From assembly GCA_041670385.1 (NCBI GenBank), contig JBAXZI010000003.1, forward strand, positions 1,618 to 65,617: a DNA stretch of 64,000 nt, read 5' to 3'. Positions 32,858-56,521 of this stretch are shown piece by piece. The notes under the pieces are model-generated. The model was not told the DNA's origin. It did no database searches and saw nothing but the letters and a program-made list of their open reading frames with translations. Source of the stretch: Clostridia bacterium. GTDB lineage: Bacteria > Bacillota > Clostridia > Christensenellales > DTU072. A program made the position numbers and the translations under genes. The first letter of the stretch is position 1, and every line of letters begins with the position of its first letter.

Positions 32858-33340
32858 ATGAAAAAGAAAAATCAAAATATTCCAAATTATGTTATTGAAG
32901 CCTTTTTTATTATAATTATAGGCATATTATTTATTGCCTTTAGAAGTTCATTGTTAAACGTCCTAATAACAATAATTGGCGTTTTATTTATAATTTATGG
33001 CGTATATAATATTTTTAATAAAAAAAGTAATATAGGTATTTTTCAATTGCTAGCAGGTATATTAATAATAGTATTTGGTTGGACAATTTTTGAATATGCA
33101 CTAATTGTTTTAGGTGTTATATTAATAGTTTATGGATTATATATCTTAGCATTAGAACTTAAAAAGTCAAACAAGAAAAAAGGAAAATTATCAGCTATTT
33201 TATATCCATTTTTATTAATAATAGTAGGAATTTTGCTAATCGTTTCCAACTTTGTATTAGTTGATACACTATTTATTGTACTAGGTGCTTTACTAATTAT
33301 AGATGGATTACTCGTACTACTAGGGAAAAAGAGAATCTAA
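32858..33340 (+). CDS. HdeD/DUF308-like membrane protein
   Basis: 160 aa with repeated G(V/I)L.I(I/V).G... TM hairpins. Confidence 0.6.
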   Translation: MKKKNQNIPNYVIEAFFIIIIGILFIAFRSSLLNVLITIIGVLFIIYGVYNIFNKKSNIGIFQLLAGILIIVFGWTIFEYALIVLGVILIVYGLYILALELKKSNKKKGKLSAILYPFLLIIVGILLIVSNFVLVDTLFIVLGALLIIDGLLVLLGKKRI

Positions 33341-34332
33341 TCAAGTTCGGCAAACAAAGTAATAATATCATTAAAGATGGTAATTTCATTATCATCTTTT
33401 TTTGTTATCATATTTATTGCATTTGCTATATCAAATTTTGTAAAAACGACTTTATTTAGTGCAAGTTCGAGCTTATCTATAAAATGTGTATTTAGAGAAT
33501 CTGTATAAACTTTTGCACTTGTAATAACGCCATCATTGATTTTTATACCAATACTAACTTCACCCCAATTGTACCTATTGCTAAATTCAGCATCAAAATT
33601 TGGGCTATCCCCATATATCCATTGCCAAGAAGAATATTTATCGTTCATTTTAGCAAATTTTTCGCATTCAGCATAAGAATTTTCATCTATAATTTTAGTA
33701 TTTTCTACTTTACCATATAGATTTTCAAAACTAATTTTTAGATTTTCTATTATTTTATCGATAGTTATTTCATCATTTAATGTTTTTAAATTAATAACTC
33801 TAGACCTAACAGAAGTTATGCCTTTGCTCATAATTTTTTGCTTAGAAGGTGTCAAAAATGTCGCTAATCTAGATAATTTTGCATCAACAAGCAAAGTACC
33901 GTGATGATAATAATTATTACCCGTATAATAAAAAGCATTACCCGAAAACTTTTTATCATTAATAGTAATGTCATTACGCCCGCTTACTACGGCTATAAGT
34001 CCAAACTCTAACAATGCGTTACTAATTACTTTAAGTTGTTTTTCTACACTATAATTATTGCGTTTAGTCAAAAAAGTAAAATTTAGATTGCCCATATCGT
34101 GAAAAACAGCACCACCGCCAGACAATCTACGAGCTAATTTCACATTTTCACTATTAATTTTTGCTATATCGCATTCTTTCCAAGGATTTTGATTATTCCC
34201 AATAACCACCGTATTATCATTTTGCCACAAATACATAATTGTTTGATTTTCGGCTATATTATCAAGCATATACTCTTCTAACGCCAAATTAAAATACGGA
34301 TTAATACTTTTTGATAATATGATATTGTTCAT
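33337..34332 (-). CDS. lplA: Lipoate--protein ligase A
   Basis: 331 aa. NPWKECD...KLARRLSGGGAVFHDMGNLNFTF closely parallels E. coli LplA (from memory). Own extended -10 promoter at 34375-34402. Confidence 0.88.
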   Translation of the reverse strand: MNNIILSKSINPYFNLALEEYMLDNIAENQTIMYLWQNDNTVVIGNNQNPWKECDIAKINSENVKLARRLSGGGAVFHDMGNLNFTFLTKRNNYSVEKQLKVISNALLEFGLIAVVSGRNDITINDKKFSGNAFYYTGNNYYHHGTLLVDAKLSRLATFLTPSKQKIMSKGITSVRSRVINLKTLNDEITIDKIIENLKISFENLYGKVENTKIIDENSYAECEKFAKMNDKYSSWQWIYGDSPNFDAEFSNRYNWGEVSIGIKINDGVITSAKVYTDSLNTHFIDKLELALNKVVFTKFDIANAINMITKKDDNEITIFNDIITLFAELD

Positions 34333-34374
34333 AAATTCTCCTCATTTCTACCTTTAATATAGTAATTTAGAATT

Positions 34375-34402
34375 ATTATATCATAAATTTAGCTGTCTTC
34401 AA
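34375..34402 (-). promoter_or_regulatory. Promoter of lplA (TTGAAG-16 nt-TGATATAAT)
   Basis: Read on the minus strand, downstream of the terminator of the preceding operon. Confidence 0.55.
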
Positions 34403-34433
34403 ACAAATTGACTTATAAAATTTCGTGATTAAT

Positions 34434-34466
34434 AAAAAAAGACACCTTAAGTTATAAGGTGTCTTT
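34434..34466 (-). terminator. Rho-independent terminator ending the nuoE/F-like operon
   Basis: Minus strand reads AAAGACACCTTA-taact-TAAGGTGTCTTT followed by T7. Confidence 0.8.
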
Positions 34467-34487
34467 ATAGTTATATAGTTTGTATTA

Positions 34488-35693
34488 TTAGTTACCTGGA
34501 TGGAAATCTTCTTTTTTGAAATCTTTACCGCTAAAGTGAATATATTTTTCACTTAAAGCACCGGTAGGACATACATTTGTACACGCCATACAAGTAGCAC
34601 AATCACTTTGATTCATTTTTGTATTAAGACCAGCTGCTATCATAGTTTTAGAGCCACGATTAACAAACCCGATGTTACACATTCCCGCAACTTCTTCACA
34701 AGCTCGTACACAACGCCCGCAAAGAATACACTTATTCGGGTCAATCCTAATTACTGGACTAGAATCATCAATGTCATAAACAACATCATTTTTTTCATAA
34801 CGAGAACTATCCACATTCAAATCTTCAAACATTTGTAGATATTCGTTAGTACCGAAAGGAATAGTCGTTGGATAAGTATCATAATTCCTAGAAGACTTGA
34901 TTAATTCTAAAATAACTTTTCTATTATGGTCAAGTTCTTCATCTTTACTAACTATTTCCATACCCTCTTCTACACGAGTACAACAAGCAGGACTTAGGTC
35001 TCTTCTACCTTTTATCTTTACTAGACACAAACGGCAAGCACCAAATTCTGACAAATCTTTGTGATAACATATATGAGGTATTTCAATTCCATTTTCTTCG
35101 CAAACATCTAATAGATTGCGTCCTTTTTTAGCTACTACTTCATTACCATCAACAGTAAATTTTACCATATCGTTTTCTGAAATTTTAGCATCATTTTTAT
35201 CAAAGAAAGAATCATAAAGGTTTAATTTTTCAGCTAATTCATAAATATCATAACCTTCATCATTTTTTGCCAATTTAGTATTTTCAAAAGGGTGTGTAAG
35301 CACTACACCTCTATCCATAGTAAGATTTCCTATTCCAACTGTTTTTGTAATTTGGATAACTTTTTTATCTTCAAAAACCATTTGCATAGCTTCTAAACCA
35401 TCTTCACAAATCAAAGGGATAATAACTGTTGCTTCATCATAATAATCTTTCTTTTTTATATCATTTTTATGTTCTTTTAATAATTTTACATTACAACCAA
35501 TACTAATAAGGTCCTTTCCTATTACATTATAGCCATCAGACTCAAGCATATCAGCAAGTAAATTTATATTTGCTTTGCCACCTACTCCACAAGCCTTAAT
35601 ACAAGTATCACAACTATTAATAACGATTTTATCTTCTTTAGTTAGTTGGTTTTTTAATTCTTCATAGTTTATTGAACGAAGTGATATTATCAT
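34488..35693 (-). CDS. Fe-S protein: N-terminal unassigned Cys-bearing domain (paralogous to the upstream 161-aa protein) + NuoG/HydA-N-type [2Fe-2S] + 2x[4Fe-4S] ferredoxin domain, with no H-cluster or molybdopterin catalytic domain
   Basis: FTVDGNEVVAKKGRNLLDVCEENGIEIPHICYH...GACRLCLVKIKG...PACCT ([2Fe-2S]). CILCGRCVRACEE and CATCMACTNVCPTGAL (two 4Fe-4S). Residues 1 to about 185 align with ORF 35690..36175. Confidence 0.75.
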   Translation of the reverse strand: MIISLRSINYEELKNQLTKEDKIVINSCDTCIKACGVGGKANINLLADMLESDGYNVIGKDLISIGCNVKLLKEHKNDIKKKDYYDEATVIIPLICEDGLEAMQMVFEDKKVIQITKTVGIGNLTMDRGVVLTHPFENTKLAKNDEGYDIYELAEKLNLYDSFFDKNDAKISENDMVKFTVDGNEVVAKKGRNLLDVCEENGIEIPHICYHKDLSEFGACRLCLVKIKGRRDLSPACCTRVEEGMEIVSKDEELDHNRKVILELIKSSRNYDTYPTTIPFGTNEYLQMFEDLNVDSSRYEKNDVVYDIDDSSPVIRIDPNKCILCGRCVRACEEVAGMCNIGFVNRGSKTMIAAGLNTKMNQSDCATCMACTNVCPTGALSEKYIHFSGKDFKKEDFHPGN

Positions 35694-36175
35694 TTGTCCA
35701 CCTCCATATTTGTAAGTGTATCGTTTGTATCTCTTTTCGCACCTGTATAAAAATCATATTCGTTATTAACTTCGTTTTTATAATCAGCGTAAGGCATACT
35801 AACTTTTATTATTTCTTTTTTGCTATCAGTTACCATAAGACCAATATCATCAATGGATTCAACTAATTTGCAAGTAGGAAAATATCTCTTCATATTTGAA
35901 GAACCAGCACTACAAGCAAGTGAAACGATTGTATTTACTTTACTATCCACATCAGCAAAATAAGTTTTTGGTGTACAAGTAGATGGAATCATAAAACCTT
36001 CAACTACATTGTATCCGTCTTTTTTTAGCTGTTTTGCAAGCGAAACTAATTTAGCCTCTCCGCCACTACCAGCTGTTCTAACACAAGTTTCACAACCAAT
36101 TATAGCAATTGCATCATTATCTTTATCAAGTTTAGAAGTTATATCTTCATATTTTTTTGATTTAGTAAATATCAT
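35690..36175 (-). CDS. Unassigned Cys-bearing Rossmann-like protein (CxxC...C...C), paralogous to the N-terminus of the downstream gene
   Basis: 161 aa, AIAIIGCETCVRTAGSGGEAKLVSLAKQLKKDGYNVV. Translationally coupled on both sides (1-nt and 4-nt overlaps). Confidence 0.6.
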   Translation of the reverse strand: MIFTKSKKYEDITSKLDKDNDAIAIIGCETCVRTAGSGGEAKLVSLAKQLKKDGYNVVEGFMIPSTCTPKTYFADVDSKVNTIVSLACSAGSSNMKRYFPTCKLVESIDDIGLMVTDSKKEIIKVSMPYADYKNEVNNEYDFYTGAKRDTNDTLTNMEVDK

Positions 36176-37896
36176 TATTTCACCTCACTATTTTTAGCAA
36201 CAGCTTCTTCATATTCATTTCTAAAATATCTTAATGTAGAAAGAACAGGATTTGGTGAAGTTTTGCATAATGCACAAAGTGCTGTTTGTTGAACTACTTT
36301 TGCAAGTTCTTCAAGTTTTGCAATATCATCTAATGTACCGTCACCGTTATTAATTTTATTTAGCATATTAAGCATTTGACGAGTACCTTCTCTACCAGGA
36401 ATACATTTGCCACAAGCTTCTTCCTTACAAAATTCCATAAAAAATCTAGCAATATCAACAGCTGACTTTTCATCACACATAACAATAAGTCCACCACTAC
36501 CCATAATTGCACCGTATTCTTGCAAGGTTTGATAATCTATTTTTACATCAAGATGTTGTGCAGGAATACAACCACCCGAAGGCCCACCTAATTGAGCTGC
36601 CTTAAATTTTTTACCTTTTGTAATTCCGCCACCAACATCATAAATTATTGTTTCTAATTTAGTACCCATAGCGATTTCTACACAACCTACATTTACGATA
36701 TCGCCTGTTATACTAAATACTTTTGTTCCACCACTAGCCTCTGTCCCGATATTAGCGAACCATTCTGCACCTTTTAATAAAATAGGAGCAACATTAGCTA
36801 AAGTTTCTACATTATTAAGAGTTGTTGGTTTTTCCCATAATCCTTGATGAGCAGGGAATGGAGGTCTAGGACGAGGATTTCCTCTTTTACCTTCTAAGCT
36901 ACGCATTAATGCAGTTTCTTCACCGCAAACAAACGCACCCGCACCTTGATATACTTCTACATCAAAATCAAATCCAGTCCCTAATATATCGACACCTAAT
37001 ATACCATATTTTCTAGCTGCCTTAATTGCTTTGTTTAATGTTTCTACAGCTAGTGGATATTCTGCTCTACAATATATATATCCACTATGAGCACCAATAG
37101 CCTTAGCTGCAACAATAAGTCCTTCCAATATACTATGAGGGTCACTTTCCAAAACACTTCTATCCATATAAGCACCTGGATCGCCTTCATCCGCATTGCA
37201 AAGTACATATTTAGTTTCGTTTGCTTCTTTAGATGCAAATTTCCATTTTAGACCAGTTGGGAAACCAGCACCACCACGACCACGAAGTTTACTATCCAAC
37301 ATTACTTGAATAATATCTTCACTTGACATTTCATTCAATGCTTTATAAGCGGCTTGATAACCACCTCTTGAAATATAGTCATCAATTTTATTAGGATCTA
37401 TTAGCCCTCTATTTCTCATTACTATTTGAGTTTGCAAACTAAAGTAAGGAATTTCTTCAATCCCTCGTACCTTTGTATCCAAAGTTTTTTGACCAGCTAC
37501 TTTACCGCCGTTTGCCTTTCTTTCTGCCAATTGATATTCCATACCTCTTGCAAAAGCATATTCGCTTACCATATTTTTGCCTACAATATGTTTATCAAAA
37601 ATCTCTTTAGTTTTACTTTCATCTACCTTACAATACATTACTGGTTCTTGTCCAGCAAGTTTTACTGTTACTAACGGTTCTTCCGAACAAATACCAGCAC
37701 AACCAGTAGTTACTATTTTGATATCTCTCATCATATTAGCTTCTTTAATTAATGCTTTTAATTTTAACAAAACCTCATTCGCACCAGAAGCAATACCACA
37801 AGTTCCCATATGGACATATATGATATTTTGATTGTTTATATCTGCACCATTTATTTTTTCAGAAATAGCGTTTATATCTTCTATACTTTTAATCAT
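36175..37896 (-). CDS. NuoF/HydB-like NADH-binding FMN Fe-S flavoprotein
   Basis: N-terminal thioredoxin-like [2Fe-2S] (GTCGIASGA...GCAGICSEEP), GRGGAGFPTGLKW FMN/NADH motif, CGKCIPGREG N3-type cluster. No C-terminal 2x[4Fe-4S] ferredoxin extension. Confidence 0.88.
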   Translation of the reverse strand: MIKSIEDINAISEKINGADINNQNIIYVHMGTCGIASGANEVLLKLKALIKEANMMRDIKIVTTGCAGICSEEPLVTVKLAGQEPVMYCKVDESKTKEIFDKHIVGKNMVSEYAFARGMEYQLAERKANGGKVAGQKTLDTKVRGIEEIPYFSLQTQIVMRNRGLIDPNKIDDYISRGGYQAAYKALNEMSSEDIIQVMLDSKLRGRGGAGFPTGLKWKFASKEANETKYVLCNADEGDPGAYMDRSVLESDPHSILEGLIVAAKAIGAHSGYIYCRAEYPLAVETLNKAIKAARKYGILGVDILGTGFDFDVEVYQGAGAFVCGEETALMRSLEGKRGNPRPRPPFPAHQGLWEKPTTLNNVETLANVAPILLKGAEWFANIGTEASGGTKVFSITGDIVNVGCVEIAMGTKLETIIYDVGGGITKGKKFKAAQLGGPSGGCIPAQHLDVKIDYQTLQEYGAIMGSGGLIVMCDEKSAVDIARFFMEFCKEEACGKCIPGREGTRQMLNMLNKINNGDGTLDDIAKLEELAKVVQQTALCALCKTSPNPVLSTLRYFRNEYEEAVAKNSEVK

Positions 37897-37914
37897 TTAA
37901 TAACCTCCAAAAAT

Positions 37915-38397
37915 TTACTTGTATTGAACTAGTATATCTTCAATACTATCCACTGTAACTTTGCCATAAACTTTGCCATCAATAATAACAACGGGGGCAA
38001 GTCCACAAGCACCAAAGCAACGTGCATTTTCGTAAGTATATCTTTTATCAGGAGTGCTTTCACCTTTCTTGATATTTAATAAACTCTCAACTTTTTCCGC
38101 AATATCTTTGCCACCTTTTACATAGCAAGCAGTGCCCATACATACTTGGACTCTATGTCTTGCTTTTTGTTCCATAGAAAAGAACGAATAAAAAGTAATT
38201 ACACCATAAATTTTATTAGGTGCTATTCCTGTTTTCAGTGAAATCCTATATTGTACACTAAGCGGCAAATAGCCAAGTAAAATTTGTGCCTCTTCAAGTA
38301 AAGGTATAAGTCCACCAGGTTTTTTACCAAACTCATCGATAATCTTGTCTAATTCCAAAATTTGAGTTTCGTTAAATTGTTTTTGAATATCTTCCAC
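37915..38397 (-). CDS. NuoE/HydC-like thioredoxin-fold [2Fe-2S] protein
   Basis: CMGTACYVKGG...CFGACGLAPVV. Start set at GTG 38397 behind AAGGAG, giving 160 aa (the track ORF starts 21 codons upstream). Confidence 0.85.
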   Translation of the reverse strand: MEDIQKQFNETQILELDKIIDEFGKKPGGLIPLLEEAQILLGYLPLSVQYRISLKTGIAPNKIYGVITFYSFFSMEQKARHRVQVCMGTACYVKGGKDIAEKVESLLNIKKGESTPDKRYTYENARCFGACGLAPVVIIDGKVYGKVTVDSIEDILVQYK

Positions 38398-38478
38398 GTT
38401 TGTACTCCTTATATTAATTAGTTTTTTACGCGTTATATTATAACACATTAAATATAACAATTGACCATTAATTGATTT

Positions 38479-38522
38479 ATTTACTATAAATTTACTATAA
38501 ATTTACTATAAATTTATCATTA
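38479..38522. repeat. Three perfect plus one degenerate 11-bp direct repeats (ATTTACTATAA) in the divergent intergenic region
   Basis: Units at 38479-38489, 38490-38500 and 38501-38511 are identical. 38512-38522 reads ATTTATCATTA. Confidence 0.9.
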
Positions 38523-38595
38523 GGGGTTGTAGAAACAATTTTATGTGTTAAACTATAGGTATAATAAAATAAATACCATTGAGGAGGTTATTTTT

Positions 38596-38949
38596 ATGGA
38601 AAATCCAAGAGATATGCTTAACGCTTTTGTAGGCGGACTAGGAGAAATCGGACAAGAAAAAGAGGCTGAAGTTGGCGCTTTTATGAACTTGTTAGGAACA
38701 AATTACCAACCAGCAGCTATTGACACAAAAACTAAAGAATTAATTAGTGTTGGTATTGCTTGTTACAACAGATGTGTATATTGTATCGTTTATCATTGCT
38801 ACAAAGCACTTGAAGCAGGTTGCACAAGAGAAGAAATTTTAGATGCAGCTATGGTTAGTGTAGCTTTCGGCGGTGGTCCATCTATGGCTTATTCAGTAAC
38901 TTACTTAAAAGCTAGTTTAAATGAATTTGCAGACGATTTCAAAAAATAA
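38596..38949 (+). CDS. AhpD-like / carboxymuconolactone decarboxylase-family protein with CxxC..H motif
   Basis: 117 aa. TKTKELISVGIACYNRCVYCIVYH (C-x2-C-x3-H) and ...GCTREEILDAAMVSVAFGGG. Start at MENPRD behind GAGGAGG. Confidence 0.8.
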   Translation: MENPRDMLNAFVGGLGEIGQEKEAEVGAFMNLLGTNYQPAAIDTKTKELISVGIACYNRCVYCIVYHCYKALEAGCTREEILDAAMVSVAFGGGPSMAYSVTYLKASLNEFADDFKK

Positions 38950-38965
38950 TTTAATATAAAAAGCA

Positions 38966-38999
38966 AAGAGATACTTATCATAAGTATCTCTTTTTTTTG
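38966..38999 (+). terminator. Rho-independent terminator after the AhpD-like gene
   Basis: AGAGATACTTAT-c-ATAAGTATCTCT followed by T6. Confidence 0.8.
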
Positions 39000-39026
39000 A
39001 ATTAACAATTAATAAGGAGTACAATA

Positions 39027-39251
39027 ATGGCAGAAATTAAAATAGAAAAAATAGCTGGAGGCGCAGCTAAAGTAGGTAAAGTTTTCGCAAAGAAAGGCGA
39101 CGCAATAAATGTTGGTGACAAATTATTTCTTCTTGAAGCTGGCAAAATTAATACACCTTTCAAATCAACTGTAGCAGGCACTGTAAGTGAAATTAAAGTT
39201 GCTACTGGCGACAAAGTTAAGGTAGGCGACATCGTAGCCGTTGTTGACTAA
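39027..39251 (+). CDS. Free-standing biotinyl/lipoyl-carrier domain protein (74 aa)
   Basis: Single hybrid-barrel domain pattern V..GD.LF.LEAGK.....S...G.V.EI.V..GD.V..GD....V. Candidate modified Lys in EAGK. RBS AAGGAG. Confidence 0.8.
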   Translation: MAEIKIEKIAGGAAKVGKVFAKKGDAINVGDKLFLLEAGKINTPFKSTVAGTVSEIKVATGDKVKVGDIVAVVD

Positions 39252-41063: not shown

Positions 41064-44000
41064 TTATGAATCAATAAATAAATCTCTTGTACTTGCTACA
41101 TTTATTACATAATGTTGAAGAAAAGTACTATACTGCGTTTTTACAGCTTGAACAATATATGGTCCAGTTGGTGATAAATTTCTAGTAACATTACTTTTAA
41201 CTAAGATTACTCTTTCATCATTAAAATTGCTCCAAATATTGGGCACATAACCATTCAAACCAGCTTCATCAAACGATTCTAATCCCGCAAATAAAGCATC
41301 ACCAATTATACTATCATCTATCCCCGTACAACTATCTACATATATAGGCATATAATCCATTCTATTAGCTAGTACATAACAAATAAAATCATTGATTTCT
41401 CTTTGACTTGTTAGCCACAAATTTTGTTTAATTCCTTTCCAAATAAAAGTACTACTAAGCATATCCACATCACTCGCATTATTATATCCTTCTGTATTAG
41501 CATTAGTATTCAAAAAAGTATTATCCGTAAGTTTGTTATACAAATCATTATCTACACAAATCAAAGTTTCTACATCAGAACGGATATTATCCACTATAGC
41601 ATAAACTCGTGTTTCACTATTTATTGTTGGAGAATATGTATAAGTATTCGTAGTACCGCTAGTTACACATACATCATTAATGTACCAATCTATAACTTGA
41701 TATGTATTACAATTAGGCAACAAATTAGCTGTAAAAGTAACATTAGTCGTTGTCCCATCTATTTGTAAAACACTATTATCGGGCACAATTTCTACATTTT
41801 CTATAGATGCAGACAAAATCCAAGTCGCTGTAAATGTTACATTTTTAGTAATTATATAACTATCACCTTCAGCATATAAAGTTGTTCCATCAGACCAACC
41901 GCCAAAATTATGATATTCATATGTAAATGAATTATTTATTAAAATGTAATTTGCATTCTCATATTGGTAGGCTATTATAGGGTCATCACCTACTCCGCCA
42001 CCATTGTTGTATGTTATTGTGAATTTTATATCTTCTTCCCAAATTGCCGTAAACACTACATTATCGCCAATTGTAAACACATCATCTACATTATAAATAG
42101 TTACACCATCGGTCCATCCTACAAATTTATGATTTTCATAAATAAAAGGGTTTTCAATCAATGTAATTAGAGAATCTTCAAATTGATTAGGGATAATAGG
42201 TGCAGTGCCGTCACCTTCTCCGCTAATATATGATACTGTATATTTATCTGCCTCTTGTCTAGAATTAAGCATTATTTTTAATGCAGGGGCCATACCACCT
42301 TCACAACTGTCAATTACTAAACTTCCCTTATTGCCATTTACCATAATATAATCAACTGTTTTACTTCCGCTATAATCAGGCGAACGCAAATACCACCAAC
42401 CCTTTTTATAATAGTCGGAGTCTGTATCGTTGTTCATAAACCCGCCCTTAATATATCCATAATCGCTAATTTGCTTTTGTCTAAGTATATCATTATAATT
42501 AACAACGCTTGAAAAACCATAATCACTATTTATAATATCATCTTTATCTAGCAAATAAATATTATCACTTACATCAGTTTCTGTTTGATTTGTTACTATC
42601 AAGCGACTTTGCATATTATTAAATGCTAAATTATAGAAATCATCGTTCAAATATTCCCTATAATCGCTATACTTCCAATTATTCGCAAAGTTGTTTTCAT
42701 CTTCATCATCTTTTGTCGTAAAATATTCATTACTATTTGCCAATTCATCATTATTGATGTCTATCCATTCATAATTTGTTTTATTAACAAAAGCACCATT
42801 GTCAATAATGTTTTCACATAAAATTAATGCTTCGCCATCATCAATTGAAAGGATTCTCCATTTTATTGGTTCTACCTTAAAATAATAGATATTTCCATTT
42901 ACTATTTCATTTCCGTCAAAATCAATTGTGGATTTTGCATTTACCAAATATAAATTCGCAACAATTTTTACATATTCGCAATCGTCGGAACCTACATAAT
43001 AGCCATTAGCATTTACTTCATTTGTCGATATGCTAACTTCACTTGCTTTCAATGACTGAGGATAAGTACCAAAATACAAATAATCGCCATCTTCACTTAC
43101 ATTATTATTGTTATCAACTCTAACATATTGGTCGGCAATATTGCCAAGTAAAGTAGGTTCTTCCCATTTAGCAAATATTAATATATTACTAATTGTACCA
43201 GAATCTATTGTCGCAATTGGTTTTGTAAAAGAACTATCTTCATACCACCCCTCAAAATTGCCGGGATTATAAATTTTGTTATCTTTCAAAATAATACCGT
43301 TAGTAGGATTTTTTAATTCAATATTATCTGCTACAGTAAATATTGTTGGATTATTTTCACTATTTGTTCCGCCATTTAGACAATAAGTAATATTATAAGC
43401 TATTAAATTTCCGCCCAAATATAAATCTAAATTTCCTGTTTTACCACTATCAATTTTTGTAATTATTTCTGTCTTTTTTACATCGCCATACCATTGATAA
43501 ATATTATCAGAAAAACCGTCTAACACCTCACCTGTAGGTATTATGAATACATATTCTTCATCTTCTATTGTATAATTTGTCTTTAGTATGTTTGGATTTT
43601 CGGTTTCTTCCATTCCATATACTAAATGATAATTTATATCATACTCAACAACTTCCCACTTTGCATATAACTCTAAATTGCCAATATCTCCCGATATTAT
43701 ATTCAATACTTCATTTTCAAAGCCAGCCTCACTGAACCAACCTAAAAATGCGTATCCACTTTTTTCAGGTACAGCAAATGTTATATTATCTTCAATAGTA
43801 TAAATATTAGGATTTTTAGTGTTTTCAATACCATCCATATTATTATAAACTATCGAATATTCAATAGGCGTCCCTCCTAAATAAATATCCAACTCTCCGA
43901 AAGTACCTTTCGTTATCTCAGTAATTTCTTCTTTTTCGCCATCAGTGAATACAAACCATTTATAATTATTATCCTGATAACCTTCTATTGCCTCAACAGA

Positions 44001-44405
44001 TGTCGGGGCTATCAATTTGTAAGTATCATCTTCAATAGTATAATAAGATTTAGCTAAATTGGGATTTGTAATACCACTAAATATATGATAATTTATTATG
44101 TAAGAATTAACTGCCCAATTAACAGTTATAGTCATATTTTCATCGGGCATTACTTGAGGAATAGTTTTATCCCAACCATTAAATGTATATCCAGCTTTTG
44201 TTGGATTAGTTGGCATCGTTATTGTTTCTCCACTTTTTAGTACAATAGGTGAAATTTCCGTACCGCCTTTTGTATCAAAAGTTATTGTTATATTTTCAGT
44301 ATTATTTGAATTATTATTCGGTTCTACTTCAAAACAAGCTGTTAGTGTAATCATTAATACACTAATGGCTAATAAAATAAAAAATAAGCTTAATTTTCTT
44401 TTCAC
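41064..44405 (-). CDS. Giant surface lipoprotein with Listeria-Bacteroides (Flg_new-type) repeats and a KWRIL-type domain
   Basis: Lipobox LTAC. Repeats of the GY.F.GW......(L/I)YA.W type. The EPIKWRIL...W..S..R..LN..FY..AF domain is shared with ORF 44535..48128. Confidence 0.8.
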   Translation of the reverse strand: MKRKLSLFFILLAISVLMITLTACFEVEPNNNSNNTENITITFDTKGGTEISPIVLKSGETITMPTNPTKAGYTFNGWDKTIPQVMPDENMTITVNWAVNSYIINYHIFSGITNPNLAKSYYTIEDDTYKLIAPTSVEAIEGYQDNNYKWFVFTDGEKEEITEITKGTFGELDIYLGGTPIEYSIVYNNMDGIENTKNPNIYTIEDNITFAVPEKSGYAFLGWFSEAGFENEVLNIISGDIGNLELYAKWEVVEYDINYHLVYGMEETENPNILKTNYTIEDEEYVFIIPTGEVLDGFSDNIYQWYGDVKKTEIITKIDSGKTGNLDLYLGGNLIAYNITYCLNGGTNSENNPTIFTVADNIELKNPTNGIILKDNKIYNPGNFEGWYEDSSFTKPIATIDSGTISNILIFAKWEEPTLLGNIADQYVRVDNNNNVSEDGDYLYFGTYPQSLKASEVSISTNEVNANGYYVGSDDCEYVKIVANLYLVNAKSTIDFDGNEIVNGNIYYFKVEPIKWRILSIDDGEALILCENIIDNGAFVNKTNYEWIDINNDELANSNEYFTTKDDEDENNFANNWKYSDYREYLNDDFYNLAFNNMQSRLIVTNQTETDVSDNIYLLDKDDIINSDYGFSSVVNYNDILRQKQISDYGYIKGGFMNNDTDSDYYKKGWWYLRSPDYSGSKTVDYIMVNGNKGSLVIDSCEGGMAPALKIMLNSRQEADKYTVSYISGEGDGTAPIIPNQFEDSLITLIENPFIYENHKFVGWTDGVTIYNVDDVFTIGDNVVFTAIWEEDIKFTITYNNGGGVGDDPIIAYQYENANYILINNSFTYEYHNFGGWSDGTTLYAEGDSYIITKNVTFTATWILSASIENVEIVPDNSVLQIDGTTTNVTFTANLLPNCNTYQVIDWYINDVCVTSGTTNTYTYSPTINSETRVYAIVDNIRSDVETLICVDNDLYNKLTDNTFLNTNANTEGYNNASDVDMLSSTFIWKGIKQNLWLTSQREINDFICYVLANRMDYMPIYVDSCTGIDDSIIGDALFAGLESFDEAGLNGYVPNIWSNFNDERVILVKSNVTRNLSPTGPYIVQAVKTQYSTFLQHYVINVASTRDLFIDS

Positions 44406-44534: not shown

Positions 44535-47500
44535 TTATAAGCTAATTTTTATTGCAGGGACAATTCCATAGGTACTATCATTTACACTTGTAAAACTCGT
44601 TAATATACCATTTTTAGCTACATAACTTACTTTTGTTGAGGTTACATTACTAGTAGATCTAAGGAACCATTTCGCATTGCCATATCTTGATAAATCTGTA
44701 TCCATATAAGCACCGATACTTCTTGCATAATCACTAACTTTTTTAGTTCTTTCCAAGCAAGAAGCGTCATCAGCTTCATCAAATCCATAATTAACGTTTA
44801 TTAAATCTTCATAACTTAATAAATAAATATTATCAGTTGTATTATTACTTATTTGTGCATATTGATTTGTTATTTTACCCGAAGCCGTGTTTTTATTATC
44901 TAATGATGATGTTTCAATAATATTTTTTTGCAAGTCACTAAATGCATTATCATAAAATTCATTGTTTAACCAACTTCTAATATCGCTATTTTCCCAATCA
45001 CTAGAATTTTCATCAAAGCTTTTATTAATAAGAATACTCTCACATAAAATTATTGCTTTACCATCGCTTTCTTCTAATATTCTCCACTTTATAGGCTCTA
45101 CTTTAAAATAATATATAGTAGATGTTATAATCAAACTATCATCACTGAATTTATACGAATTACTATTCGGCGAGCTAATTACTTTCGCATAAAAACTATT
45201 ATCCGAACCTAAAAAGTATCCTTTTTCGTTAGGCGTACTGCCTACTATTTCTACTTGACTATCCTTTAGTGTTTGTGGATATTCTCCATATAAAATATAT
45301 TGTCCAGTACTATTTTCAACATTATTTTCATCTACTCTCGTATAAGCTTTTTCCACTACGACTTCTTCCCATTGTGCTATGCATTCTAAATTGTTACTCG
45401 GCATTATATTAGGCACAATAGGCAACCAACCAATAAAATTATATCCCGCCTTAATAGGATTATTTGGTGCGATTATTGCTGAATTATAATTTTGCGATAT
45501 GTCGGCTACTAATTCGCCACCTGCACTATCAAAACTTATTGTATATTGGTCTATTTGCCAACACGCAAATAAATCCTTATTCCCGATATTCCCAATTTCG
45601 ATTTTATTTACCTTATTAACAAATGTATCTTCTAAAAACCAACCAATAAAAGTGTTTCCTTCTTTTGTCGGATTTTCAAAAATTATTTCATTTTCAACCG
45701 TATATTTAGATACATTATTATCACTATTCACGCCATTATCCAAATAATAATTTATGCAATAATCTATAGGGTTAATTAGTCCCAAAAATAAATCTAAATT
45801 TCCACAAGAACCGATAACTATTTCATTAATTTCATTCGTTTTTCCGATATCCGTATACCATTTATAATTATTATATCCTTTGCTTGCACTTGTAGGTAGA
45901 ATAGGCAAAATTAATTCATAGGTTGCATCATCTATCAAATAAAATTCTTTACTCGCATTAGGATTTTCTACGCCATCAATTAAATGGTAGGTAATAGTAT
46001 ATTGATTTGCTTCCCAAATTGCATTAATTGTCATATTATTACTTGGCATTGTTATTGGAATTGTTTTATCCCAACCAATAAATTTATCTCCTAATTTTAT
46101 AGGGCTATCAGGTGCCATAATTTCAGTACCAAAATTTTGAGTAATAGGTAAAATTTCATTGCCACCAACAGTATTAAAAGTAATTGTATAACTTTCTACT
46201 TGCCACTTTGCAAACAATTCTTTATTCCCGATACTTCCACTTTCTATTTTTGTTATTTCATCTATAAATGTATCTTGCAAATACCAACCCAAAAAAGCAT
46301 ACCCGTCTTTAGTAGGCGTACCTAAAATTATTTCATCTTCTATGGTATATTCATTTGAATTATTAATATTATTTGTACCTTGATTTAGTTCATAATTAAT
46401 AACAAATTTTTGAGCTAACCAATTAGCATCTAAATTTATTATTCCATTGTTTTGCGTACATAACATTCTTACTGTAGAGTTATCCTGATAAATATTTTCT
46501 CCACAACTCCAGTAATTAAAATCATAATAATCCCTAACAAATATATTTGTAGGTAATTTAATGCTTTCTGTAAAGCCAATATCGACCAAACTATCCATTT
46601 CACTTCGAACTTCAAAATTCGCATTAAAATTTATTGTATATTTATTTTCTTGCCATTTTGCCGACAAATTCAAATTACTTGATATCGTTTGATAATTCAC
46701 AAATTGTGCATCATTTACGCCGTTACCTGTAAACCAACCCAAAAATGTAAATCCATCTTTGTTAGGTAATGGCAAGCTATCAAAATTGCTACCACTAATT
46801 TTATTTATTTTATATAAATTGTTATCACTATCAAATATAAGTAATGGTTCATAATTTGCATCAATAATCCCACCTACCGCATCAAATTGTATTGCATAAT
46901 TCTCTTTTATCGCCATCGTTATTTCAAATAAAAATTTAGTATTATCCGAAAATAAGACTTCATAATTATCTATGCCGTTAACTGATGAAATTTTAGTAAT
47001 TGACACAATACTTTTTCCATCTTGTCCATCTACACCTTGTGCTTTTGCCTTTGTGTCCGTATCTCCTAAAAACCAATTTCCATTACTACCTATATGTGGC
47101 GTCAAACCATCTATTCCGTTAGTACCATCAATTCCGTTAGTGCCATTTAATCCATCTATGCCATTAGTACCATCTGTACCATTAGTACCATCTATACCAT
47201 TAGTACCATCTATACCATTAGTACCATCTTGTCCATTTTGACCTTCCGCATAAACACCAGTATCTATATCACCCAAATACCAATTGCCATTAGTCCCAAT
47301 ATGTGGTGAAATTCCATTATCACCCTTTTTCCCTTTAAGCAATTCCAAACTTATTAAATTAGTCCAATTATCCTCATCTTGGTATTTCCATTGTATATAT
47401 TCATTGTTAATATTTATACAAATTTCTCTACCATTTACGCCATCATTTCCTTGTAATCCAATACTTCCATCATTACCAACAATTACACCTAAATTTCTTA

Positions 47501-48128
47501 TTTCACCATTACTTAATGTTATAATTAATTCTTTATTCCCACTAATTTCAATATTTGTTATTGCTATACCAATTTCGCCTTTTAAGCTTAACAACCATTC
47601 ATTTTCAGAACCGACAAACCCTTTTTCTACAGCAATTTCATAGGCGTTTTTACCATTTGTAGCTATTGCGGTTTTTCCAGTGTCAATATCGCCTAAAAAC
47701 CAATTCCCATTTTCGCCAATGGCAGGGATAATTGCATTTTCGCCATTAATTCCTACAGCTCTAACTGCTGTATCTGCATCGCCTATGTACCAATTCCCAT
47801 TTTCGCCGATATGAGGTGTAATTCCATTTGTACCGCTTGCACCTTTTAAGCTCGCAAGCCATTCTTCAGCGGTACCCCTATATCCGTTTGTTTTAGCAAC
47901 ATTATAAGCACTATCGCCTTTGCAATCTTCAAGGAATTCTTCCAAAGTGCCTTCATAGCCTAATTCTTTTGCTGTTTCAAAAACTTTATTTATATCAGTA
48001 TTCTCATCATTTATTAAATTTTGCTCTAAATCAGACACAGAATTATCAGTCTTATTACAGGCAGATAATAAAAAAACAAATGATACGCAAGATAACATTA
48101 TACACGCTAAAATTAAGAATTTTCTCAT
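44535..48128 (-). CDS. Giant surface lipoprotein: tail-fibre-like G.NGNW(Y/F)(I/L)GD.DT repeats, collagen-like Gly-X-Y tract, Listeria-Bacteroides repeats, KWRIL-type C-terminal domain
   Basis: Lipobox LSAC. Four GxNGNW..GD.DTG motifs. GQNGQDGTNGIDGTNGIDGTNGTDGTNGIDGLNGTNGIDGTNGIDG. Confidence 0.8.
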   Translation of the reverse strand: MRKFLILACIMLSCVSFVFLLSACNKTDNSVSDLEQNLINDENTDINKVFETAKELGYEGTLEEFLEDCKGDSAYNVAKTNGYRGTAEEWLASLKGASGTNGITPHIGENGNWYIGDADTAVRAVGINGENAIIPAIGENGNWFLGDIDTGKTAIATNGKNAYEIAVEKGFVGSENEWLLSLKGEIGIAITNIEISGNKELIITLSNGEIRNLGVIVGNDGSIGLQGNDGVNGREICININNEYIQWKYQDEDNWTNLISLELLKGKKGDNGISPHIGTNGNWYLGDIDTGVYAEGQNGQDGTNGIDGTNGIDGTNGTDGTNGIDGLNGTNGIDGTNGIDGLTPHIGSNGNWFLGDTDTKAKAQGVDGQDGKSIVSITKISSVNGIDNYEVLFSDNTKFLFEITMAIKENYAIQFDAVGGIIDANYEPLLIFDSDNNLYKINKISGSNFDSLPLPNKDGFTFLGWFTGNGVNDAQFVNYQTISSNLNLSAKWQENKYTINFNANFEVRSEMDSLVDIGFTESIKLPTNIFVRDYYDFNYWSCGENIYQDNSTVRMLCTQNNGIINLDANWLAQKFVINYELNQGTNNINNSNEYTIEDEIILGTPTKDGYAFLGWYLQDTFIDEITKIESGSIGNKELFAKWQVESYTITFNTVGGNEILPITQNFGTEIMAPDSPIKLGDKFIGWDKTIPITMPSNNMTINAIWEANQYTITYHLIDGVENPNASKEFYLIDDATYELILPILPTSASKGYNNYKWYTDIGKTNEINEIVIGSCGNLDLFLGLINPIDYCINYYLDNGVNSDNNVSKYTVENEIIFENPTKEGNTFIGWFLEDTFVNKVNKIEIGNIGNKDLFACWQIDQYTISFDSAGGELVADISQNYNSAIIAPNNPIKAGYNFIGWLPIVPNIMPSNNLECIAQWEEVVVEKAYTRVDENNVENSTGQYILYGEYPQTLKDSQVEIVGSTPNEKGYFLGSDNSFYAKVISSPNSNSYKFSDDSLIITSTIYYFKVEPIKWRILEESDGKAIILCESILINKSFDENSSDWENSDIRSWLNNEFYDNAFSDLQKNIIETSSLDNKNTASGKITNQYAQISNNTTDNIYLLSYEDLINVNYGFDEADDASCLERTKKVSDYARSIGAYMDTDLSRYGNAKWFLRSTSNVTSTKVSYVAKNGILTSFTSVNDSTYGIVPAIKISL
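47106..47243 (-). repeat. Collagen-like Gly-X-Y coding repeat (9-bp periodic)
   Basis: About 46 residues of G(T/Q/L)(N/D)G(I/T/Q)DG. On the plus strand it appears as ccattagtaccatct... periodicity. Confidence 0.9.
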
Positions 48129-50638: not shown

Positions 50639-52918
50639 ATGAAAACAGATTCTGAAGTTCAACAATTAGTAGATAGCTATGGCAATTGGGTGCAAAATGA
50701 TAATTTAGAGAATACTGCCGGTGGTACTGGTAGAATGACTAAAGAATTATATCCCTATGATTCCGTTTTTTCTCCAATCCAAATAAATAGACTTACACTT
50801 AAAAATCGTGTTGTAATGGGACCTATGGGTAATTTGGATATGTGCGAAGAAAACGGACGTCCTAATGACAAAATGTTACAATATTTCTTTGCTCGTGCAA
50901 AGGGAGGTACAGGTTTGTTAACAACAGGATTAATCCCTGTAAGTCACGGAATTGATAGTTCCGTAACAGAACCAGGCGGTTTAAGTTATTTCCCAAGAAT
51001 AGACCGTTCTCGTACCAACTTGATGGGTTGGCGTGATTTATCTCAAGGTGTTCACGCTTACGGAAGTAAAATTTTTATACAACTTACACCTGGACTAGGT
51101 CGTGTTGGTAATCCTAATTGTTTATTAACAATGCACAAACTTCCAGTTTCTGCATCTTGGAATCCTAATTTTTATATAAGTGAGATACCTTGCAAAAGAC
51201 TTTCAGATCACGATTTAAAGAAAATTATCAAAAATTGTGGACAAGCTGCTGCTGATGCAAAAGAATGCGGATTAGATGGTGTATATTTACACGGGCACGA
51301 AGGTTATTTATTAGAACAAATGACAAATCCTGCTTTCAATAGAAGACAACTTGGTAAATATTCTGACCCACAAAAATTTGGTATCGATATTATTAAAGAA
51401 ATTCGTCGTCGTGCTGGCGCTAACTATCCTATTATGTATCGTATAGATTTAAGTTTAGCACTTAACGAAACTTATGGCGAAAAAGGTATGAAAGTTAAAC
51501 AACTTAAAAAGTTCACTAACGGTCGTACAATTCAAGACACACTAGAATATATGGCAAATTTAGTTAAAGCCGGCGTTGATATGTTTGACGTTGATTTAGG
51601 CTGTTATGATAACTGGTGGTTACCACATCCTCCAGCAGGTATGCCTGCAGGCTGTTTCTTGCCTATTAGCAAGATTGCAAAAGATTATTTCAAGAAAAAC
51701 AATATATTGTCTAATGCTGGTGTAGAAGTTCCTATAGTTGCTGTTGGTAAACTTGGTTATCCTGATATTGCTGAAAAAGCTATCCGTGATGGCGATTGTG
51801 ATATGGTAATGCTTGCAAGACCATTACTTGCTGACCCTGACTGGTGTAATAAAGCTTATAAAGGTGAAGTTTCTGACATTTGCCCTTGTATTGGTTGTCA
51901 AGAAGGTTGTATAAACGAATTTGTATTAGGCGGACACCCACAATGTGCGGTAAATCCTCGTACTGGATTTGAAGATATTATACCTCAAGAAATACCAAAA
52001 GCTACTGTTTCAAAGCGTATTGCTGTACTTGGTGCAGGACCTGCTGGTATTATATTTGCACTTAGCTCACTTAAGAGAGGTCACAAAGTAGACTTATACG
52101 AGAGAAATGCAGAAATTGGCGGTAAGGTTATTCCCGGTGGCAAACCTAAAGGTAAATTCGATTTTGAAAACTACTTGATTTATCTAAATAGTAAAATTGA
52201 AAAAGCAAAGAAAAATGCCAACTTCAAATTAATTCTTAATTCTACTGCTGATACAGAATCTCTTAAAAAAGAAGGTTATGACGCAGTCGTATTAGCATAC
52301 GGAATAGATAACAAAGTGCCTGGTTTCTTAAAAGGTATAAACGATGTAAAACACGCTTTTGCAACTGATATATTAGTAAAACCAGAATTGCTAGATGGCG
52401 CTAAAAAAGTTGTTATAGTCGGTGGTGGCGTAGTTGGTTGCGAAGCTGCTTACTTCCTAGCTTACGAACAAGGTATTGATGTAACCGTTGTAGAAATGCT
52501 ACCTCGTTTTATGGAAGGTTCTTGTACAGCTAATCGTGGACATTTACTACATTATATGGAAATAGCTGGAGTAAAACTTCATAATTGCACAAAAGTTACT
52601 TCATTTGAAAAAGGCAAAGTTAATGTTGAAAAGAATTATAATAAGAATGTTCCTAATCCTTATAATTGTTGGCAACCTATACTACCTACTAATATAGAAA
52701 ATCCATTGGCAAAGAAAATTGGTGATGATTTCAAACCTACTTCTTTCGAAACCGATATGGTTCTTCTTGCTATGGGTGGTCGTGCCGATGAAAAAATGTT
52801 CTTTGAAATGCAACAAGCTCACGTAGCACCAGAACTATATAATATTGGTGATAGTGCTAAAGCTGGTAGAGTATTAGAAGCTAGTAGAGCTGCTTATAAT
52901 CTTGCTCTAAAAGTTTAG
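50639..52918 (+). CDS. OYE-family FMN/[4Fe-4S]/FAD oxidoreductase (2-enoate reductase / 2,4-dienoyl-CoA reductase type), long form
   Basis: LKNRVVMGPMGN, HGHEGYLLEQM, CPCIGCQEGC cluster motif, AVLGAGPAGI and VIVGGGVVGCEAA dinucleotide folds. 759 aa with an N-terminal extension of about 45 aa. Confidence 0.85.
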   Translation: MKTDSEVQQLVDSYGNWVQNDNLENTAGGTGRMTKELYPYDSVFSPIQINRLTLKNRVVMGPMGNLDMCEENGRPNDKMLQYFFARAKGGTGLLTTGLIPVSHGIDSSVTEPGGLSYFPRIDRSRTNLMGWRDLSQGVHAYGSKIFIQLTPGLGRVGNPNCLLTMHKLPVSASWNPNFYISEIPCKRLSDHDLKKIIKNCGQAAADAKECGLDGVYLHGHEGYLLEQMTNPAFNRRQLGKYSDPQKFGIDIIKEIRRRAGANYPIMYRIDLSLALNETYGEKGMKVKQLKKFTNGRTIQDTLEYMANLVKAGVDMFDVDLGCYDNWWLPHPPAGMPAGCFLPISKIAKDYFKKNNILSNAGVEVPIVAVGKLGYPDIAEKAIRDGDCDMVMLARPLLADPDWCNKAYKGEVSDICPCIGCQEGCINEFVLGGHPQCAVNPRTGFEDIIPQEIPKATVSKRIAVLGAGPAGIIFALSSLKRGHKVDLYERNAEIGGKVIPGGKPKGKFDFENYLIYLNSKIEKAKKNANFKLILNSTADTESLKKEGYDAVVLAYGIDNKVPGFLKGINDVKHAFATDILVKPELLDGAKKVVIVGGGVVGCEAAYFLAYEQGIDVTVVEMLPRFMEGSCTANRGHLLHYMEIAGVKLHNCTKVTSFEKGKVNVEKNYNKNVPNPYNCWQPILPTNIENPLAKKIGDDFKPTSFETDMVLLAMGGRADEKMFFEMQQAHVAPELYNIGDSAKAGRVLEASRAAYNLALKV

Positions 52919-52926
52919 GAGAATTT

Positions 52927-53697: not shown

Positions 53698-53721
53698 ATA
53701 TTACTATTGAAGGAGAACTCC

Positions 53722-54936: not shown

Positions 54937-54938
54937 TT

Positions 54939-56507: not shown

Positions 56508-56521
56508 AAGGAGATAATAAA

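Follow-up and report, generated by a model that had tools for sequence, protein, structure and literature searches.

A candidate NADH:lipoyl-carrier redox system with a NuoEF-type complex in place of dihydrolipoyl dehydrogenase in a Clostridia bacterium

The window analysed here, a stretch of 64,000 nucleotides (nt) from a Clostridia bacterium in whose numbering all coordinates of the locus are given, carries at 33337-39251 seven genes that, judging from their sequences and their joint conservation, very likely form one system. They encode an AhpD-like protein of the CMD family, a free lipoyl-type carrier of 74 amino acids (aa), the lipoate-protein ligase LplA, and the NuoE-like, NuoF-like, 161-aa and 401-aa subunits of a putative complex. 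We consider it probable that together they make up a single thiol-redox relay, a variant of a widespread cassette of AhpD-like CMD protein, lipoyl domain and LplA, and that within it the four-subunit complex has replaced dihydrolipoyl dehydrogenase (Lpd, E3) as the reductase of the carrier. The comparison that carries this proposal is one of gene clusters: in most related loci the lipoyl domain is fused to Lpd, and the complex is present exactly where the carrier gene is without that Lpd half. On the end use of the relay we are more guarded, and suggest peroxide or oxidant defence only tentatively and by analogy.

The features of the locus are the following.

33337-34332, minus strand: lplA, lipoate-protein ligase, 331 aa; TIGR00545 equivalog, PF21948 and PF10437
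34438-34466, minus strand: terminator-like hairpin between the 401-aa gene and lplA, a stem of 12 base pairs (bp) and then a T-run; consensus match only
34488-35693, minus strand: 401-aa subunit, MetV-N-like domain plus NuoG/HydA-type [2Fe-2S] and 2x[4Fe-4S], from Pfam, NCBIfam and PDB matches
35690-36175, minus strand: 161-aa subunit, a stand-alone MetV-N-like domain, from alignment and hhalign to the MetV-type N-terminus
36175-37896, minus strand: NuoF/BfuB-like NADH-binding FMN subunit, 573 aa; PF01512 and PF10589
37915-38397, minus strand: NuoE/HoxE/BfuC-like [2Fe-2S] subunit, 160 aa; PF01257 at E=1.7e-44; the open reading frame (ORF) extends to a TTG at 38460
38398-38595, no strand: divergent intergenic region, 198 bp; presumed promoters and operator, from reading of the sequence
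38596-38949, plus strand: AhpD-like CMD-family protein, 117 aa; PF02627 and TIGR00778
38965-38993, plus strand: hairpin and then a T-run between the CMD and carrier genes, terminator- or attenuator-like; consensus match only
39027-39251, plus strand: free lipoyl-type carrier, 74 aa; PF00364 at E=5e-13; modifiable lysine K40

All seven ORFs of an initial annotation of this locus are present with the domains then claimed for them, as judged from the ORF list, Pfam and NCBIfam, and two of their start codons were corrected. The NuoE-like subunit most likely starts at the GTG at 38397, which has an AAGGAG ribosome-binding site upstream and gives a protein of 160 aa, as also called on an identical public contig, and not at the TTG at 38460. 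The start of the CMD gene moves from 38545, where the ORF opens, to the ATG at 38596, which is preceded by a GGAGG site and gives a 117-aa protein identical to the public protein P0188.

Conservation of the gene neighbourhood and the displacement of Lpd

The four minus-strand genes are packed as tightly as originally described: those for the 401-aa and 161-aa proteins overlap by 4 nt, the latter and nuoF share 1 nt, and a gap of 18 nt separates nuoF from nuoE. The next gene downstream of this operon is lplA, yet a terminator-like hairpin intervenes and lplA has a promoter-like site of its own. Also borne out was the absence of H-cluster, molybdopterin, GltD, E1/E2/E3, GcvPT and carboxylase genes near the locus; Pfam annotation of the 20 largest other ORFs of the window and precomputed Pfam annotation of the downstream flank contained no hydrogenase, formate dehydrogenase, GltD, E1/E2/E3, GcvPT or carboxylase. 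That the arrangement is more than chance is evident from its conservation in other loci.

This conservation, which the initial annotation had set as a check on its proposal, was assessed in loci seeded by the 161-aa protein and searched with the seven proteins of the window, a set that is unbiased but small, with 11 informative places. In eight of these, the genes for CMD, free lipoyl protein and LplA (hereafter the triad) stand beside the four-gene operon, and four gene orders are seen among the linked loci. In the order of the window, lplA lies 3' of the operon and the CMD-lipoyl pair is divergent from it; in Tissierellales (L007), CMD-lipoyl-LplA is divergent from the operon; in Peptococcia (L005, L006, L009), as well as in L058, the arrangement is convergent; and in five metagenome-assembled genomes (MAGs) of Peptostreptococcaceae (L010-L014) all genes are co-directional, in the order CMD-lipoyl-LplA-NuoE-NuoF-161-401. 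The co-directional order is found further in L049, L063, L067, L069, L075, L085, L086 and L108, and a contig of Sphaerochaeta, from the phylum Spirochaetota, has the full co-directional string of seven genes. The linked lineages thus named are a Clostridia MAG, Peptococcia, Tissierellales, Peptostreptococcaceae and Sphaerochaeta. We also considered that the 161-aa family might be an accessory subunit of a hydrogenase or formate dehydrogenase, an outcome that would have spoken against the initial annotation, and rejected it because no catalytic subunit is encoded in any examined locus and other partners are conserved instead; the family is related to the N-terminal domain of MetV, which is an electron-transfer subunit.

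The relation to Lpd is seen when the loci are approached from the CMD protein. Scanning metagenome contigs with a CMD alignment gave 80 loci, which were classified by tblastn and of which the 55 with at least 1.5 kb downstream of CMD were taken as informative; by its design, this survey is biased to CMD-containing loci. The prevailing arrangement, in 42 of the 55, is CMD-[lipoyl+Lpd fusion]-LplA (Lpd-type), followed by CMD-[free lipoyl]-LplA-NuoE-NuoF-161-401 (Nuo-type) in eight, and by CMD alone in five, and in none of the 55 do we find both reductases, that is, the lipoyl-Lpd fusion and the four-subunit complex. Two short contigs end right after CMD-[free lipoyl]-LplA. Examples of the Lpd-type are found in Vallitalea pronyensis and Mycoplasmatota WC44, where genes for MarR, CMD, a 570-aa protein and LplA follow one another (L026 6369-10075; L027 6363-10122) and where the 570-aa protein combines a lipoyl domain and a dihydrolipoyl dehydrogenase in one chain (TIGR01350, 522 bits at a cutoff of 408.8). 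A MarR gene lies upstream of CMD in 35 of 37 Lpd-type loci. The Lpd-type cassette is widespread in anaerobic Bacillota and relatives (e.g., L035, L043, L057 and L077).

The CMD proteins divide along the same line, those of the Nuo-type loci forming one clade apart from those of the Lpd-type, with a mean identity of 78% within the Nuo-type, 75% within the Lpd-type and 66% between the two (range 58-73%). Family sizes are matched as well, with about 42 clusters of the free carrier and 38 of the 161-aa protein, as compared to at least 773 of CMD. This pattern, with the complex present exactly where the carrier gene is without the Lpd half, bears the mark of a non-orthologous displacement of Lpd. 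It gives strong, if indirect, support to the Lpd-independent route proposed in the initial annotation, from NADH to the lipoyl group and on to an AhpD-like thiol reductase, the two cluster types being mutually exclusive in their distribution; the part of that proposal that did not hold is the complete novelty of its Cys domains, which is taken up below.

The carrier, the AhpD-like protein and the four-subunit complex

The 74-aa protein, introduced in the initial annotation as a biotinyl/lipoyl domain and treated in its proposal as a lipoyl carrier, looks lipoyl- and not biotinyl-type. Its lysine motif, E37-A-G-K40-I-N-T, has K40 invariant in 23 sequences and conforms to a family motif E-[AS]-x-K-x-N-T, the M-K-M of biotinyl domains being absent; the free carrier and the Lpd-fused lipoyl domain are homologous over their full length and have the lysine motif E-[AS]-G-K-G in common; and in a PDB profile search its best matches are E2p lipoyl domains at 1e-18, as against 7e-13 for the best biotinyl domain. 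The AlphaFold2 model (predicted local distance difference test, pLDDT, 94) is a lipoyl/biotinyl barrel, in keeping with the flattened beta-barrel of lipoyl domains, whose modifiable Lys stands at a hairpin tip, and has a template modelling (TM) score of 0.88-0.92 to E2 lipoyl domains, while the match to the GcvH-like PF01597 reaches only E=0.006, below the cutoff. The orthogroup is well delimited, with about 42 clusters at E<=2e-20 and a clear gap before generic matches of the biotin carboxyl carrier protein type. A role as biotin carboxyl carrier of a carboxylase or decarboxylase, without any tie to the neighbouring redox genes, would be compatible with the PF00364 fold, which is common to biotinyl domains, and with the many biotinyl domains listed by NCBIfam and Foldseek. 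It is, however, hard to reconcile with the missing M-K-M motif, with the conserved adjacency of LplA and not BirA, with the fusion of the homologous domain to dihydrolipoyl dehydrogenase, with the lead of 5-6 orders of magnitude in E-value that E2p lipoyl domains have in the profile search, and with the absence of carboxylase genes from the window; we regard it as extremely improbable and rejected it for its motif, ligase, Lpd-fused homologue and profile matches. The ligase itself is a clear LplA (TIGR00545, 354.6 bits at a cutoff of 280), and an LplA gene is kept in clusters of the Lpd-type and of the Nuo-type alike.

The CMD protein (PF02627, 71.1 bits at a cutoff of 23; TIGR00778, 46.8 bits at a cutoff of 27.8) has the AhpD-like C-x2-C-x3-H signature for which it had been singled out, and C60, C63 and H67 do not vary among 19 orthologues or among any of the copies linked to clusters. 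Against TIGR00777, the model for full-length AhpD, the protein scores 17.7 bits, below the cutoff of 191.95. Its orthogroup is tight, at about 70% identity, and with its at least 773 clusters far larger than the 161-aa family. In the locus and its flanks, Pfam detected neither AhpC/Prx nor a Pyr_redox dihydrolipoyl dehydrogenase.

The NuoE-like (PF01257) and NuoF-like (PF01512 and PF10589) subunits have the domains of the electron-input half of an NADH-dependent enzyme, as had been claimed. Among solved structures, those nearest to the NuoF-like subunit all belong to B subunits of bifurcating Bfu enzymes (7t2r_B at E=3e-188, 7q4v_B, 9n5u_B, 8a6t_B and 7p5h_B), and the NuoF-like subunit retains the N-terminal thioredoxin-like [2Fe-2S] domain typical of BfuB, in addition to the N3-type [4Fe-4S]. 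What it does not have is the C-terminal extension of 70-100 residues that is present in the solved BfuB chains: the aligned part reaches to about residue 524-559 in chains 597-630 residues long, while the query has only 9 residues left after it, and all ten of the NuoF-like orthologues, with lengths of 567-592 aa, end about 20 residues past the N3 motif. We take the missing extension to be the domain that holds the two [4Fe-4S] clusters B3 and B4. Ferredoxin has been proposed to exchange electrons via B3 and B4 (PMC9304861). As the NuoF-like subunit is without this two-cluster domain, simple NADH dependence seems more likely than bifurcation. The N3-type motif is itself altered in nine of the ten orthologues to EF-C-x4-C-G-K-C-I-P-G-R-E-G (residues ~489-503), in which the third Cys of C-x2-C-x2-C is now Gly and an extra Cys lies upstream. 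At residues ~540-545, the NuoF-like subunit of the window has L-C-A-L-C in the place of the L-C-G-L-G of Bfu enzymes.

The other two subunits are less easily placed. Neither the 161-aa protein and its 21 homologues nor residues 1-165 of the 401-aa protein match any family in Pfam or NCBIfam, and a PDB sequence search with the 161-aa protein was empty too. That both proteins contain the same Cys domain, as had been proposed, is supported by their paralogy (29% identity, E=5e-16). In the family alignment, C28, C31, C67 and C88 are invariant in the 161-aa family, while the N-terminal domain of the 401-aa protein conserves C28, C31, C35, C67 and C96, i.e., the same four and additionally C35, which makes up a C-x2-C-x3-C motif. 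The initial annotation had spoken of CxxC domains; the four or five conserved Cys are more likely to bind a metal than to act as free redox pairs of the CxxC type. Members of the 161-aa family are rare: clustering at 90% identity gives 38 clusters out of 5.8 billion sequences, and the family profile finds 195 matches among 1.84 billion representative proteins. An AlphaFold2 model of the 161-aa protein (pLDDT 82.6) has the form of an alpha/beta sandwich, in which the Cys are placed where strands end, and is of low confidence around the Cys loops (pLDDT 62-70); a Foldseek search of the PDB with it returned generic alpha/beta sandwiches only (best E=9e-3, TM ~0.4).

A relationship emerges from the distant matches of the 161-aa profile. 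Obtained at hmmsearch E-values of 1e-8 to 1e-4 from the same representative proteins, these are proteins of 200-230 aa whose C-terminal half matches PF12225, the C-terminal domain of methylene-tetrahydrofolate (THF) reductase, and carries the NGPCGG signature that is a hallmark of MetV (PMC8515935). The region of homology is formed by the N-terminal 110 residues of these MetV-type proteins, and hhalign of the 161-aa family against 21 of them gives a probability of 99.5% at E=5.9e-23; the 107 aligned columns include all four Cys. The extreme N-termini agree as well, with MIFTK and MIISLR in the two proteins of the window, MI(I/V)T and MI(I/V/F)T in the MetV-type set, and MIISEKKS in C. ljungdahlii MetV, as deduced from the metFV-F primer (PMC8515935). 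Since the profile alignment and the shared N-terminus tie the Cys domains to MetV, their fold family is not wholly new, and we consider the 161-aa protein and the N-terminal domain of the 401-aa protein to be remote relatives of the un-annotated N-terminal half of MetV. PF12225 is absent from the 161-aa and 401-aa proteins and from all 21 family members, no methylene-THF reductase gene occurs in any locus examined, and a sequence search found no solved MetV structure. MetV, a subunit of the methylene-THF reductases of acetogens that occurs in MetFV-type enzymes of types II-IV and of the 'X type', is described as an Fe-S/Zn electron-transfer module that joins MetF to the NADH-oxidising partners RnfC2, HdrABC-MvhD and NuoEFG homologues, of which the pairing with NuoEFG homologues constitutes the unstudied 'X type' (PMC8760232, PMC8515935). 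One 161-aa homologue (L001 4211-4828) is labelled 'DUF1847' in UniRef, a label that looks wrong, as hhalign of the family against a genuine PF08901 protein, which is encoded 5 kb upstream in the same genome, gives a probability of 0.2%.

The two MetV-N-like domains also occur as a second subfamily, in which a '161-type' protein of 156-160 aa is followed by a '401-N-type' protein of 166-170 aa, 43% identical to the N-terminus of the 401-aa protein of the window, and in which the pair is encoded with a polyferredoxin and MvhD/FlpD, not with NuoE/NuoF (L019 133-2630; L023 5287-7227; both short contigs). Because the pair is kept where polyferredoxin and MvhD replace NuoEF, the MetV-N-like A/B pair is the constant core of these systems and the electron-input module the exchangeable part. 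In L023, a gene for a sigma-54 activator lies just upstream of the pair on the opposite strand.

Beyond its N-terminal domain, the 401-aa protein has a [2Fe-2S] domain at residues 175-250 and 2x[4Fe-4S] at residues 313-384, with Fer2_4 and Fer4_Nqo3 matches within 175-384, and its PDB matches to the N-terminus of HydA/NuoG span residues 175-390 only. For the third, His-ligated [4Fe-4S], all nine other orthologues keep the His/Cys ligands and only the protein of the window has lost them: where the nine have H-N-C-L-T-C-S-K-G...C (residues ~262-285), it has N-Y-D-T-Y-P-T-T and a 4-residue deletion. This cluster is apparently dispensable in this genome.

Proposed electron route and competing explanations

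In the relay that we propose, LplA would attach scavenged lipoate to K40 of the carrier, as expected from its family membership. The NuoE-like, NuoF-like, 161-aa and 401-aa proteins would form a soluble complex whose NuoF-like subunit oxidises NADH at its FMN. By homology to solved complexes, the electrons may then run along the N3-type [4Fe-4S] and the [2Fe-2S] clusters as well as the 2x[4Fe-4S] that the 401-aa protein carries. The output site would be the MetV-N-like Cys-metal pair of the 161-aa protein and the 401-aa N-terminus, a role that we favour because MetV links NADH-oxidising modules to a terminal enzyme. This site would reduce the lipoyl disulfide of the carrier by two successive one-electron transfers, as is done by Fe-S disulfide reductases, among them ferredoxin:thioredoxin reductase (FTR) and Hdr/HdrB. 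The dihydrolipoyl carrier would then reduce the C-x2-C disulfide of the AhpD-like protein, and the latter a peroxide or an oxidised thiol target. Lipoylated proteins are known to reduce AhpD, Ohr and OsmC, and a relay of AhpD, lipoyl protein, Lpd and NADH is established chemistry (PMC8945050). We think it probable that the complex does the task of the lipoyl-domain-Lpd flavoprotein found in most relatives. A bolder proposal, which we put forward as a possibility with somewhat less than even confidence, is that it represents the first E3-independent NADH:lipoyl-protein oxidoreductase, with a heterodimer of MetV-N-like Fe-S domains that reduces the lipoyl disulfide directly. To our knowledge, wherever a system that maintains protein-bound lipoate in the reduced state with NADH has been characterised, its enzyme is a flavoprotein disulfide reductase from the E3/Lpd family.

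Several observations weigh against this scheme. The operon occurs without the triad within 8-10 kb in the other three of the 11 loci seeded by the 161-aa protein, namely those of Caproicibacter fermentans, a Spirochaetia genome and the Spirochaetales MAG L016, and the 401-aa proteins of Caproicibacter fermentans (L001, CP060286) and the Spirochaetia genome (L003) form a separate clade, being 71% identical to each other (L016 was left out of this tree). The MarR gene of the Lpd-type loci is found upstream in none of six Nuo-type loci. In the MetV-like domains, the conserved Cys could bind a structural Zn instead of a redox cluster. Lipoamide together with dihydrolipoyl dehydrogenase gave no electrons to the MetFV of C. 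ljungdahlii in vitro (PMC8515935), and the MetV fold is for this reason one without demonstrated lipoyl affinity. As no peroxiredoxin, Ohr or OsmC partner is encoded in any locus examined, peroxide defence is proposed from analogy.

The loci without the triad, two of them with 401-aa proteins of their own clade, are what one would expect if NuoE-NuoF-161-401 were a general NADH input module with some other terminal partner, its adjacency to the triad arising from co-regulation or hitch-hiking, and MetV-type domains do serve as generic connectors for more than one kind of input module. It is hard, however, to account for four independent gene orders and a seven-gene cluster that crosses phyla without functional coupling; moreover, the Lpd half is gone from the carrier gene in all eight Nuo-type loci of the CMD-seeded survey, where no locus has both reductases, and no alternative conserved neighbour of the operon was seen in the loci examined. 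We therefore judge a general input module to be unlikely. In another explanation, which we rate as unlikely, the MetV-N-like domains serve for docking only, as structural modules with Zn, and reduction of the lipoyl arm or of the CMD protein takes place elsewhere in the complex, for instance at the distal [4Fe-4S] of the 401-aa protein or at the flavin. It draws on the annotation of MetV as Fe-S/Zn-containing (PMC8760232, PMC8515935), on the arrangement of the four Cys over three strand ends in the model, which could make a Zn site, and on the low confidence of that model at the Cys loops. Against it speak the fifth conserved Cys of the 401-aa N-terminal domain and the observation that the A/B pair is the sole element kept when polyferredoxin and MvhD replace the input module, which fits an output site better than a scaffold.

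It is also conceivable, if quite unlikely, that the partners are the same and the energetics differ, the complex being a bifurcating or confurcating Bfu-type enzyme that uses ferredoxin as well, or electrons flowing from the dihydrolipoyl carrier to NAD+. The kinship of the NuoF-like subunit to B subunits of bifurcating Bfu enzymes only, and its BfuB-typical N-terminal [2Fe-2S] domain, are in line with this, as is, for the reverse flow, the reversibility of the Lpd reaction. Bifurcation is nevertheless disfavoured by the lack of the BfuB C-terminal extension in ten of ten NuoF-like orthologues, and would not be needed, since the lipoyl/dihydrolipoyl and NAD+/NADH couples are nearly isopotential (lipoic acid, -325 mV; PMC8760232).

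If the proposed NADH-to-carrier relay is correct, it would 1) add a new enzyme class for lipoyl reduction, 2) provide the first functional context for a rare orphan domain family (~195 representatives in 1.84 billion proteins), 3) bring to light an AhpD-type cassette that depends on lipoate, is widespread in anaerobic Bacillota and apparently uncharacterised, and has the Lpd-type as its commoner form, and 4) give a role to the un-annotated N-terminal half of MetV. Under the bolder proposal of direct reduction by MetV-N-like Fe-S domains, strict anaerobes without nearby 2-oxoacid dehydrogenases would possess a lipoate-based system dedicated to antioxidant defence or thiol repair, and the N-terminal domain of MetV would be a lipoyl- or dithiol-interacting Fe-S site, which would reopen the question of the physiological redox partner of MetFV, the methylene-THF reductase whose genes adjoin lpdA and gcvH in acetogens (PMC8760232, PMC8515935).

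Regulatory sequences, other genes of the window and relation to known systems

The intergenic region between the operon and the CMD gene contains the repeat that had been reported there, an 11-nt unit ATTTACTATAA in ~3.5 tandem copies at 38479-38522, together with a perfect 6-1-6 palindrome, GTTATA-T-TATAAC, at 38432-38444. Neither of them is found upstream of CMD in the other loci examined. A regulator site shared by the regions upstream of CMD was sought with Fur- and PerR-box scans and with palindrome searches, and was discarded, the results being lineage-specific only: the scan upstream of CMD gave no Fur-like site in the window, and Fur-box-like sites scoring 13/14 in the Peptostreptococcaceae-type loci L010 and L069. 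Inverted repeats with arms of 15-25 nt lie upstream of CMD in Peptostreptococcaceae-type loci (L010, L011 and L013, at ~-155 to -175 from CMD), and a motif TGTTAACGTAAC-yy-GTTAwGTAT is found just upstream of the CMD ribosome-binding site in L067, L085 and L108 (its sharers being named as L067, L085 and the Sphaerochaeta locus).

Elsewhere in the window, five genes in a row on the plus strand (50639-57331) look like a radical dehydratase pathway; they encode a 759-aa protein with Oxidored_FMN and Pyr_redox_2 domains (enoate/dienoyl-CoA reductase-like), a ParA/CbiA-type ATPase, two HGD-D 2-hydroxyacyl-CoA dehydratase subunits and a BcrAD/BadFG activator ATPase. The minus strand encodes three very large proteins with a predicted surface location (15651-19721, 41064-44405 and 44535-48128), in which BspA-type leucine-rich repeats, Listeria-Bacteroides repeats, DUF6273 and a collagen-like stretch are found.

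Among known systems, the functionally closest are the AhpC-AhpD-DlaT-Lpd system of M. tuberculosis and the Ohr/OsmC systems, the likeness lying in a protein of AhpD-type, with C-x2-C-x3-H, that is re-reduced by a protein-bound dihydrolipoyl group maintained by NADH (PMC8945050). In the mycobacterial relay, the carrier is the E2 of a 2-oxoacid dehydrogenase, whereas the locus described here has a dedicated, free 74-aa carrier with its own LplA, encodes neither Lpd (E3) nor AhpC, and has as its CMD protein a single-domain protein of 117 aa that fails TIGR00777. The Lpd-type cassette is closer in composition, with an orthologous CMD, a homologous lipoyl domain and an orthologous LplA in the same order, but its reductase is a canonical FAD/disulfide Lpd fused to the carrier, in contrast to the free carrier and the unrelated four-subunit FMN/Fe-S complex of the Nuo-type. 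In the sHdr-LbpA system, too, a stand-alone lipoate-binding protein with an LplA-type ligase serves an Fe-S/flavin complex and not E1/E2/E3 (PMC6067878); the carrier here is, however, an E2/E3-type lipoyl domain and not GcvH-like, and instead of HdrABC, DsrE and TusA we find an NADH module and an AhpD-like protein.

On the side of the complex, the Bfu family (HydABC, NiFe-HydABCSL and NfnABC) provides the closest relatives of the NuoE- and NuoF-like subunits (E up to 3e-188) and has the same start of the A subunit, with [2Fe-2S] and 2x[4Fe-4S]; what sets the complex apart is the missing C-terminal two-cluster domain of BfuB, the altered N3 motif and the lack of any H-cluster, pterin, NiFe or GltD-like catalytic domain. 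A precedent for coupling a Bfu module to oxidant defence in anaerobes is Rub-Bfu, which is predicted to function in H2O2 reduction (PMC9304861). MetV has the N-terminal four-Cys domain and likewise connects NADH-oxidising modules to a terminal enzyme, but the proteins described here are without the PF12225 NGPCGG domain and without MetF, and occur as two paralogous copies, one of them fused to a NuoG-N-type module. A full-text literature search, outside whose scope much of the subscription literature lies, found no paper that describes either the Nuo-type or the Lpd-type cassette. What we consider new in this locus, when set beside these systems, is a putative class of lipoyl-protein reductase, operating within what is otherwise a known lipoyl-dependent relay of the AhpD type.

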